Counted from the stretch's first letter, positions 3,952 through 6,747 are shown. The stretch: DNA of 7,513 bases from a virus (IMGVR_UViG_2698536348_000008:1-7513), one strand, 5' to 3'. Translations and numbers: made by a program. Notes: a model not told the origin generated them from the letters alone.

Positions 3952-4323
3952 ATGCGTGATATTCAAATGGTTCTTGAACGTTGGGGGGCATGGGTGGCAA
4001 ATAATCACGAGGATGTGGAATGGTCATCTGTTGCTGCAGGTTTTAAGGGATTAATTCCTTCGAAAGTAAAATCCCGCCCGCAATGTAGCGATGACGATGG
4101 CCTGATCATTAGCTCTGCGATGACAGTTCTTAAGAAAAAGGAACCGTATCAATACGAATTACTGGAAATGTATTATGTGTATGGGGTTACATTACGGGTG
4201 TTGGGGGTAAAACTGGGGATATCACTTAATCAGGTTGTTATCAGACTGCAGAAAGCTGAAGGGTTTATTGACGGTTGTCTGGCAATGTTGGGGGTATCTT
4301 TAGAAATTGATTGTTACATATAG
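3952..4323 (+). CDS. Antitermination protein Q (QuuD-like short Q)
   Basis: MRDIQMVLERWGAWVANNHEDVEWSSVAAGFKGLIPSKVKSRPQC... closely resembles the DLP12 prophage Q homologue QuuD as I recall it. ATG 3952 has RBS GGAG at 3941-3944; the ORF-track start at 3937 is TTG. Confidence 0.75.
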   Translation: MRDIQMVLERWGAWVANNHEDVEWSSVAAGFKGLIPSKVKSRPQCSDDDGLIISSAMTVLKKKEPYQYELLEMYYVYGVTLRVLGVKLGISLNQVVIRLQKAEGFIDGCLAMLGVSLEIDCYI

Positions 4324-4398
4324 TAATAAATTCAATCAAAGTAAATAATCATATTTTATTATAACCTCCTGATGATACCTGTTCATTGGGAGGTTATT
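4324..4398 (+). promoter_or_regulatory. Q-distal intergenic region: candidate late-promoter (pR'/qut-like) position plus a leader hairpin that pairs with the RBS of the next ORF
   Basis: In lambdoid phages pR'/qut lie directly after Q (established); here 75 AT-rich bp follow the Q stop. ATAACCTCC (4361-4369) is the exact reverse complement of GGAGGTTAT (4389-4397), which contains the RBS of the ORF starting at 4399. Promoter hexamers were not confidently placed. Confidence 0.3.
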
Positions 4399-4632
4399 AT
4401 GGATAAAAATGTAGAGCATGTATTAGTTGATGCAATTGAAAATAAGCAATCTTTAACAGTCGTTTACTTAGGAGGGAGCCAGCCCGGAACATTAAGGAAT
4501 ATTTCTCCGATTAGTATAAATGGGGATAAATTGCGGGCAAGATGCCATAGTTCTGGAGCAGTAAAGGTTTTCAATCTTGGGAAAATACAGTTACCCAGTG
4601 ACTCCTGCGCGGTATCTATGCACTATGGAGAT

Positions 4633-4636
4633 TTAG
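4633..4636. repeat. IS5 target-site duplication, left copy (TTAG)
   Basis: TTAG immediately outside the IS5 left terminus; an identical TTAG flanks the right terminus. IS5 makes 4-bp duplications at YTAR-type targets (established). Confidence 0.85.
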
Positions 4637-4652
4637 GGAAGGTGCGAACAAG
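4637..4652. repeat. IS5 left terminal inverted repeat
   Basis: GGAAGGTGCGAACAAG; its partner at 5816-5831 reverse-complements to GGAAGGTGCGAATAAG. Confidence 0.9.
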
Positions 4653-4659
4653 TTCCTGA

Positions 4660-5685
<1,026 letters not shown>

Positions 5686-5815
5686 AAACTGGGGATAACG
5701 CCTTAAATGGCGAAGAAACGGTCTAAATAGGCTGATTCAAGGCATTTACGGGAGAAAAAATCGGCTCAAACATGAAGAAATGAAATGACTGAGTCAGCCG
5801 AGAAGAATTTCCCCG

Positions 5816-5831
5816 CTTATTCGCACCTTCC
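5816..5831. repeat. IS5 right terminal inverted repeat
   Basis: CTTATTCGCACCTTCC, inverted complement of the left terminus with one mismatch. Confidence 0.9.
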
Positions 5832-5835
5832 TTAG
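5832..5835. repeat. IS5 target-site duplication, right copy (TTAG)
   Basis: TTAG immediately outside the IS5 right terminus, identical to 4633-4636. Confidence 0.85.
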
Positions 5836-6344
5836 AAGTTAAAGCTTATGAGACGATGCAGAGCGTAAATGACAACTTTCATGCCCTTTATCCTGAAGGA
5901 CGATGGGGTGTTGATTTTAATGAGCATCGCTTTGCTTTATTTGATTTTTTTAAAAACGGGAAACGAAAAAAAACGGCATTTATGGCAATTGAGTTCAGGG
6001 AAAGAGATGAAGAGAAAATAATAACAGGTGTAACAATTGATATTGGTATATCTGGAACAGTGATTTCTGAGAAGTCCCGAATCCCAAAAAGACGACCATG
6101 GGTAGTGGTTGGTCCCGAACACGGAGAATACAGTACTTATTCAACTTTGGACAAGGCTGCTACAGCGTTTTTTGAGAGGCTTTCGTTGATAGCATCCGGC
6201 CTGGAAGATAATTGATTTTATGTTTGGTATTCAGAGTTCGCCGTGCTTAAGAAAGTCAAGATTCTAAAAATACTGAATGAGCTACTTGTGTTATAACAAA
6301 AATGCTATTAGTGTGTTAAGAGTGGTTACTTCGCCACACAACTT

Positions 6345-6369
6345 AAACCCGCCACTGAGCGGGTTTTTT
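6345..6369 (+). terminator. Rho-independent terminator (8-bp stem AAACCCGC/GCGGGTTT, 6-nt loop, T6 tract)
   Basis: Stem 6345-6352 pairs with 6359-6366 and is followed by TTTTTT 6364-6369. Lies about 130 bp after the cargo ORF stop. Confidence 0.6.
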
Positions 6370-6716: not shown

Positions 6717-6747
6717 GGCTGGTGGGTGTTAGGGGCACCCACCAGCC
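6717..6747. repeat. Perfect 12-bp inverted repeat (GGCTGGTGGGTG / CACCCACCAGCC) with 7-nt spacer; each arm contains a Chi octamer
   Basis: Left arm 6717-6728, right arm 6736-6747, exact reverse complements. GCTGGTGG is at 6718-6725 (+ strand) and its complement CCACCAGC at 6739-6746. Confidence 0.6.

Follow-up and report, generated by a model that had tools for sequence, protein, structure and literature searches.

A leader hairpin predicted to mask the ribosome-binding site of a WYL-domain gene downstream of a Q21-family antiterminator gene in lambdoid Escherichia coli prophages

A hairpin between the antiterminator gene Q and a WYL-domain open reading frame (ORF) of a lambdoid Escherichia coli prophage is a real, strong, and lineage-conserved control element of a fairly ordinary, well-known kind, and it probably serves as a cis-repressed ribosome-binding site (RBS) in the leader of the WYL ORF. 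The analysis covered 7,513 nucleotides of viral DNA (IMGVR_UViG_2698536348_000008:1-7513), here called the window, which belongs to a lambdoid E. coli prophage near-identical to the prophage of strain S88. In the reading that we favor, a transcript would enter from upstream through Q and carry both hairpin arms; the anti-Shine-Dalgarno (anti-SD) sequence ACCUCCU of the 5′ arm, identical to the core of the 16S rRNA 3′ end, would pair with the Shine-Dalgarno (SD) sequence GGAGGU of the 3′ arm, a lower stem would cover the AUG, and the 30S subunit would be unable to bind, leaving the WYL ORF translationally repressed. The masking arm is expected on the WYL mRNA because there is no good promoter between Q and the hairpin and the late promoter appears to lie downstream. 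Occlusion of this kind would lower translation. The coordinates of all features are given in Table 1.

Table 1. Features of the Q-WYL region and of the downstream late-promoter region in the window
Feature	Position	Strand	Basis or remark
Q antiterminator gene, Q21 family	3952-4323	+	Pfam PF06530, E = 1.5e-47; RefSeq annotation of S88
A/U-rich spacer, largely unstructured	4324-4354	+	Sequence; possible 30S standby platform
Lower stem, 5′ side, UUUAU	4355-4359	+	Pairs with 4399-4403; RNAfold, RNAalifold consensus
Candidate -10 hexamer TATTAT	4357-4362	+	Consensus match; predicted start about 4369-4372, inside the 5′ arm
Promoter-like site ATGAAC/TGAACA, 16-17-nt spacer, TATAAT	4358-4386	-	Points into Q
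5′ arm of main stem	4361-4375	+	Holds anti-SD ACCUCCU (4364-4370)
Loop UACCUGU, 7 nt	4376-4382	+	UACACGU in the divergent lineage
3′ arm of main stem	4383-4397	+	Holds SD GGAGGU (4389-4394)
Lower stem, 3′ side	4399-4403	+	AUG (4399-4401) plus two more nucleotides
WYL-domain ORF, N-terminal fragment, 79 codons	4399-4636	+	phrog_8498; cut by IS5, reads to stop 4657-4659
IS5, 1195 bp	4637-5831	+	InsH ORF 4705-5685, 100% match to IS5 insH
WYL-domain ORF, C-terminal remainder	5836-6215	+	Stop TGA 6213-6215; compared with L001 5500-6117
Late-promoter region plus terminator (inferred)	6286-6369	+	Placement by comparison with relatives
pR′ (putative): TTGTGT, 17-nt spacer, TAGTGT	6286-6291, 6309-6314	+	PWM score 6.5
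Q-subfamily-specific block GTTAAGAGTGG...	6315-6346	+	Shared with WYL-less relatives
tR′	6347-6369	+	Stem 6347-6352/6359-6364 plus T-run; terminator score +24

The upstream gene encodes an antiterminator of PF06530, the Q21 family (PMC9388147), and its product also matches the Q21 chains of PDB entries 6P18/6JNX (E = 5.6e-10). Three successive in-frame stops, TAG TAA TAA (4321-4329), end the gene. The downstream ORF is real: its product has 205 aa in intact relatives (L001 5500-6117), starts at ATG 4399, and has an N terminus that aligns with its homologues. The region 5′ of this ATG is non-coding because the other lineage has a 1-nt indel there; an extension of the ORF from ATG 4372 was likewise rejected, having no SD and a frame broken by the 1-nt indel in the other lineage. 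In the window the ORF is interrupted after codon 79 by IS5, with the target sequence TTAG duplicated on either side (4633-4636 and 5832-5835), and the hairpin consequently precedes a pseudogene here. Relatives match the window only up to 4636, where IS5 begins, and among complete E. coli genomes with a match to at least 80% of the stretch's length, 73 in number, none has the IS5 junction.

A preliminary description of this DNA had reported a 9-bp inverted repeat, ATAACCTCC (4361-4369) and GGAGGTTAT (4389-4397), enclosing a 19-nt loop and followed by an ATG at 4399-4401. The arms and the start codon are where that description placed them and the repeat is real, but its size was understated. RNAfold adds six pairs, four Watson-Crick and two G·U, so that the main stem has 15 bp (4361-4375 paired with 4383-4397; 13 Watson-Crick and 2 G·U), contains no destabilizing internal mismatches, and closes a loop of 7 nt, not 19. 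A U·U mismatch (4360/4398) separates this stem from the five-pair lower stem. The folding energy of the entire hairpin (4355-4405; 51 nt, 33% GC) is -22.8 kcal/mol, a value that 200 dinucleotide shuffles never reached (shuffle mean, -8.6; sd, 2.4; z = -5.9). A comparison of 4976 sliding windows of 51 nt, taken from both strands, places it second in extremeness once GC is corrected for (z about -5); of the 666 windows with a GC content of ≤0.40, which average -5.4, none is more stable. The hairpin is not a chance feature. Nor does it belong to a known curated RNA family: searches of Rfam 15 at permissive and gathering thresholds returned nothing for the hairpin region, where no match reached the gathering score and the best sub-threshold chance match scored 22 bits against thresholds of 45 to 100.

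All of the SD, which lies five nucleotides before the AUG, is paired in the RNAfold structure, and the AUG sits inside the lower stem. Folded in a 161-nt context at 37°C, the SD has a computed probability of about 0.0001 of being unpaired, and forcing 4386-4411 open is computed to cost 17.8 kcal/mol. Across the variants of the WYL leader this cost ranges from 14.7 to 20.0 kcal/mol, compared with 8.8 ± 2.9 kcal/mol for 33 distant homologues of the WYL gene drawn from genomes, viral contigs, and metagenomes, and with a median of about 9 kcal/mol for the other genes of these phages. Similar computed costs do occur at a few phage genes (e.g., 21.2 at L001:383); these lie in translated, overlapping coding regions. 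Masking as a feature of the gene family was rejected, the 33 distant homologues having ordinary RBS accessibility; by these folding calculations, masking is a trait of the leader of one phage lineage and not of the gene family. The earlier suggestion that the leader hairpin could gate translation thus holds up in the folding models: the SD is predicted to be paired with an anti-SD, opening would cost about 18 kcal/mol, and the arrangement is kept in a lineage that is only about 75% identical.

That gating would take the form of a thermosensor, as the same description had proposed, did not survive the melting series. ROSE and fourU elements have their SD located in a hairpin, and an RNA thermometer opening the RBS at host temperature would share this geometry with the element studied here. 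Over the range of 20 to 75°C, however, the SD remained paired, with a probability of being unpaired of 0.0001 at 37 to 42°C and 0.0055 at 75°C (below 0.006 throughout), and the 15-bp stem is free of the internal mismatches that would destabilize it. A thermometer is therefore exceedingly improbable. Translational coupling to Q was also rejected, the Q stop being 32 to 38 nt upstream of the stem and judged too far away; the ribosome reach used in this judgment is our own estimate.

The hairpin is present in 74 of 5426 complete E. coli genomes. All copies lie between a Q21-family Q upstream and the 205-aa WYL-domain ORF downstream, and each of the 74 genomes has exactly one, which argues against a repeated or mobile palindromic element such as a REP or an IS end. 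Three SNPs segregate within the main lineage, two of which strengthen the stem. T4360A (13 loci, e.g., L004) closes the U·U mismatch to give 21 continuous bp and -26.9 kcal/mol, and U4387C (6 loci) turns a G·U pair into G-C; the third, G4393A (3 loci), costs the stem one pair and makes the SD weaker. A divergent lineage, about 75% identical, keeps the hairpin with five changes in the arms. Four of these preserve pairing (C-G to U·G, A-U to G·U, G·U to G-C, and U·G to U-A), with a gain of two G·U pairs that are again in the + sense, and the fifth breaks a pair (A-U to A·G). The CTCCTGATGATAC segment of the 5′ arm is unchanged across all variants.

RNAalifold independently gives the same consensus hairpin, and in-register pairing holds in 93.9% of cells versus 36 to 56% with the register slid. 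Covariation is not statistically significant (shuffles match the observed values in 344 of 500 trials) in a sample that effectively consists of two lineages with one double-sided change only. Between the lineages, identity is 78% in the hairpin, 80 to 85% in the flanking coding DNA, and 50% in the upstream spacer, which also has an 11-nt indel. Part of the conservation is explained by the RBS itself; at the level of sequence, the conservation is consistent with function without proving it. The nearest outgroup proteins, P0010 and P0012, gave no loci when searched in viral contigs, and hence no third leader lineage.

Two natural arrangements of the element are of note. In E. coli O113:H21 FWSEC0010 (L003, 2703-6223), an Stx2 prophage carries the divergent Q-hairpin-WYL module, with tRNA genes and stx2A downstream of it; the WYL ORF of this strain starts with GTG, which pairs with C across the lower stem. 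In one viral contig (L032, about 2215-2990), IS1 is inserted between the hairpin arms with a target duplication of roughly 9 to 11 bp. This shifts the anti-SD about 800 nt from the SD while the WYL ORF stays intact, and the insertion could be a natural de-repression allele.

An inverted repeat may act as DNA rather than as RNA. In this case the region would contain divergent -10 elements, one of a WYL promoter on the + strand and the other of a promoter for an anti-Q RNA on the - strand, overlapping in an AT-rich palindromic segment around 4357-4363, or else the repeat would be an operator. Some of the promoter-like matches are strong. The minus-strand site has 10 of 12 matches and a PWM score of 10.2 (99.99th percentile), making an anti-Q transcript possible from the sequence, and phage 21 has an annotated antisense promoter, paQ, though inside Q. 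On the + strand, the candidate promoter is a sigma-70 consensus match with a poor -35; its -10 occupies the same alignment columns in all variants, as TATTAT, TATAAT (T4360A), or TACAGT (divergent lineage, where TGAACA lies 16 nt upstream), with PWM scores of 4.9, 7.1, and 7.3, respectively, corresponding to the 99.5th to 99.9th percentile of the prophage background.

These are, however, consensus matches in DNA of 67% AT, and the minus-strand score falls to 5.2 in the divergent lineage. There is no CII-type site nearby (the TTGYN6TTGY motif is absent near Q, and a CII-dependent paQ-like site was rejected accordingly), and few operators would be expected to have arms as long as 15 bp around a 7-bp spacer. 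The differences between the arms, moreover, are exactly the positions of G·U pairs in the + sense, including the two new G·U pairs of the other lineage. As RNA, the + strand folds at -22.8 kcal/mol versus -15.5 kcal/mol for the - strand; the difference of about 7 kcal/mol in favor of the + strand arises from the wobble positions, which form G·U pairs in this sense alone. Such wobbles are more readily explained by structure in + strand RNA than by RNA of the - strand or by a symmetric operator in DNA, and a DNA-level role is accordingly quite improbable. The T4360A substitution that extends the stem also alters the hexamers: on the + strand TATTAT becomes a perfect TATAAT, and on the - strand TATAAT becomes TATTAT. 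A further promoter-like sequence on the + strand, ATGATA-17-TATTAT (4372-4400; PWM score, 9.3), is predicted to start transcription within the ORF; the divergent lineage does not keep it, and it probably arose by chance from the A/T richness of the RBS spacer.

The element could instead end or protect the Q transcript, as a weak intrinsic terminator or a 3′-end stabilizer that reduces read-through from Q into the cargo and/or shields the Q mRNA from 3′ exonucleases, the overlap with the RBS being incidental or secondary. Its GC-rich core, CCUCCUGAUGA...UCAUUGGGAGG, is followed by UUAUUAU, a tail in which 5 of 7 residues are U (6 of 8 in the divergent lineage). Two relatives with other cargo have a canonical terminator directly after Q, namely, GGGGAG..CUCCCC plus a U-run in L006 and GGGGGAAUUACCCCCC plus a U-run in L107, and no N-like antiterminator is annotated in the S88 prophage. 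The quantitative comparison nevertheless points the other way. With the stem counted from C4365 to G4393 and the tail as UUAUUAU, its best stem base, the discriminant (d'Aubenton-Carafa formula) is +2.5, and it is -1.9 in the divergent lineage (L002), whereas three strong terminators (tR′ here, phage 21 tR′, and L001 6580) score +24 to +30; the hairpin was not called by the consensus scan. In the predicted structure the U-rich tail itself pairs with A residues upstream, and at 13 loci it belongs to a continuous 21-bp helix; this works against U-tract release. The G-C pairs of the stem also coincide almost exactly with the SD:anti-SD pairing, as expected for RBS masking. A terminating or stabilizing function as the main role is thus unlikely; any such activity would be weak at best and compatible with RBS masking.

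The position of the hairpin immediately after Q, where phage 21 has its late-promoter elements, had also led to the proposal of a qut-like element. In annotated phage 21 (OL657228), pR′, QBE, SDPE, and tR′ begin 6 nt after the Q stop. In the phage group studied here, the corresponding block, GTTAAGAGTGGTTACTTCGCCACACAACTTAAACCCGCC..GAGCGGGTTTTTT, differs in position according to the cargo: it directly follows Q in L005, which has no WYL ORF, comes after other cargo in PhiR40_1 and mEp460_4F5 (L006 and L107), and is found downstream of the WYL ORF in the window and in the divergent lineage (L002). A TAAGAG motif within it resembles the phage 21 SDPE (TAAGCTG) and is followed by tR′. Phage Ayreon has a Q of very different length with no DNA match to the Q of the window, carries, in our own reading of its sequence, a lambda-like AACGAT pause motif, and shares sequence only from the terminator onward. 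The 5′ portion of the block therefore tracks the Q subfamily. From this sequence comparison we infer that pR′ lies at 6286-6314.

The block that follows Q in WYL-less relatives is thus located at 6286-6369 in the window, downstream of the WYL ORF, about 1.9 kb from the hairpin here and about 0.75 kb without IS5, and this contradicts the qut proposal. The hairpin resembles the phage 21 qut site in directly following a Q21-family Q gene and differs from it in having no promoter, QBE repeats, or pause element: the + strand upstream of the hairpin contains no promoter with at least 9 of 12 matches, and 4324-4400 has no adjacent 8-bp direct repeats like those of the phage 21 QBE. That the hairpin is part of a qut site or of a late-promoter leader is hence very improbable. 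Because the late promoter/tR′ block is downstream of the WYL ORF, the hairpin region presumably forms the far end of the early transcript that includes Q.

In related phages, the interval from Q to the late block is a hot spot for cargo insertion, with the WYL ORF, a reverse-strand phrog_3152 gene, and others as occupants. In Ayreon, tR′ is duplicated (L007, 1324-1350 and 2001-2027) around a two-gene insertion downstream of a lambda-like pR′, a second way of inserting cargo around the tR′ terminator.

To return to the cis-repressed RBS, a WYL gene kept permanently silent would not be retained, and some route of relief must therefore exist. We rank three candidates. The first is low, leaky expression via ribosome standby on the A/U-rich spacer, of which about 4337-4349 is unpaired in the MFE of 4300-4460. 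The second consists of transcripts from the -10-like hexamer at 4357-4362, which would lack the anti-SD; for RNAs starting at about 4369-4372 the computed opening cost is 2 to 3 versus 16 to 18 kcal/mol, and the same truncation in the divergent lineage gives 8 to 9 versus 13 to 15 kcal/mol. The third is cleavage by RNase III: the 15 bp, the U·U mismatch, and the 5 bp of the lower stem make up a helix of about 21 bp, the two turns that serve as the length criterion for this enzyme, which may cut it. As for activation in trans, the riboregulator style of gating raised in the preliminary description, the anatomy is suitable, but across 50 kb of the S88 prophage the sequences complementary to the 5′ arm and loop were limited to chance-level 11- to 12-mers.

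The second of these routes would, in its strongest form, make the element a switch on transcript origin, in which read-through RNA from the early operon is silent and RNA from the gene's own weak promoter, starting at about 4369-4372, e.g., in the lysogen, is translated. We regard this version as rather doubtful. It has a precedent in the T4 genes e, soc, 49, and I-TevI, whose translation initiation regions are covered by inhibitory hairpins, with a reported repression of about 100-fold for gene e (PMC3014915). The likeness, on the predicted structure, is that the SD and/or AUG would be held in a stable helix with the sequence just upstream, that transcripts entering from upstream would be silent, and that the DNA encoding the 5′ strand contains a promoter-like -10. 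In contrast to the T4 e-type elements, the internal promoter is here a consensus match only, the host element is a lambdoid prophage and not a T-even phage, and the logic would be lysogen versus lytic read-through, not early versus late. If true, the switch would bring the logic of T4 gene e and I-TevI into a lambdoid prophage and limit a WYL protein without an HTH to one state of the life cycle.

Engineered riboregulators of the kind reportedly described by Isaacs et al. in 2004 contain cis-repressed RNAs. As in the hairpin, their anti-SD and SD occupy one 5′ leader and are separated by a short loop; in contrast to them, the hairpin showed no trans-activating complement in a search of the 50-kb prophage. 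The tisB mRNA provides a natural example of a structured RBS served by ribosome standby (PMC6690012). As modeled, the WYL leader would resemble it in having a stably sequestered RBS preceded by a single-stranded A/U-rich stretch that could preload 30S; in contrast to tisB, it shows no sign of an antisense RNA, a processing step, or a toxin, and its product is a soluble-looking protein of 205 aa. Phage leaders processed by RNase III include the lambda N leader and the T7 early mRNAs. Sites of this enzyme in E. coli have been surveyed (PMC5371410). With the phage leaders, the hairpin shares a two-turn helix that lies between two cistrons and contains the RBS; it differs from them in the extra internal mismatch of the divergent lineage and is a candidate substrate by length only. 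Literature searches found nothing on a Q-WYL hairpin element, and a paper on pR′ of Stx prophages had no usable coordinates.

If the hairpin silences the WYL ORF, cargo located between Q and the late promoter would be uncoupled from strong lytic transcription. The presence of the Q-hairpin-WYL module upstream of stx2 in the O113:H21 Stx2 prophage lends some practical interest to the fate of RNA downstream of Q. On the folding models, the hairpin suggests that the dose of the WYL protein is tightly limited, in this phage lineage only, and the protein may be a more interesting target than the hairpin. It belongs to phrog_8498, which has no assigned function. Structural modeling of roughly its first 70 residues gives a WYL domain resembling the ones in the ssDNA sensors CapW, BrxR, and DriD (Foldseek E = 2e-4), and the protein showed no sign of a DNA-binding HTH. 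The family is widespread and uncharacterized and consists of stand-alone proteins of about 190 to 210 aa in 487 clusters at 50% identity. Judging from the structural model, the protein could bind single-stranded nucleic acid, perhaps as a decoy.

Other structured RNAs were noted in the same phages. The most stable hairpin of the window is not the one described above but GGCUGGUGGGUG...CACCCACCAGCC at 6717-6745 (about -33 kcal/mol, no U-tract), which sits between the terminator of a small TrmB-like gene and a DNA methyltransferase gene (ATG 6841). In S88, Rfam matches to STnc100 (L001 7789-7997; 131.7 bits) and to the anti-stx2 small RNA AsxR (8000-8052; 63 bits) lie downstream of the prophage tRNA genes; this prophage lacks stx at the equivalent position.
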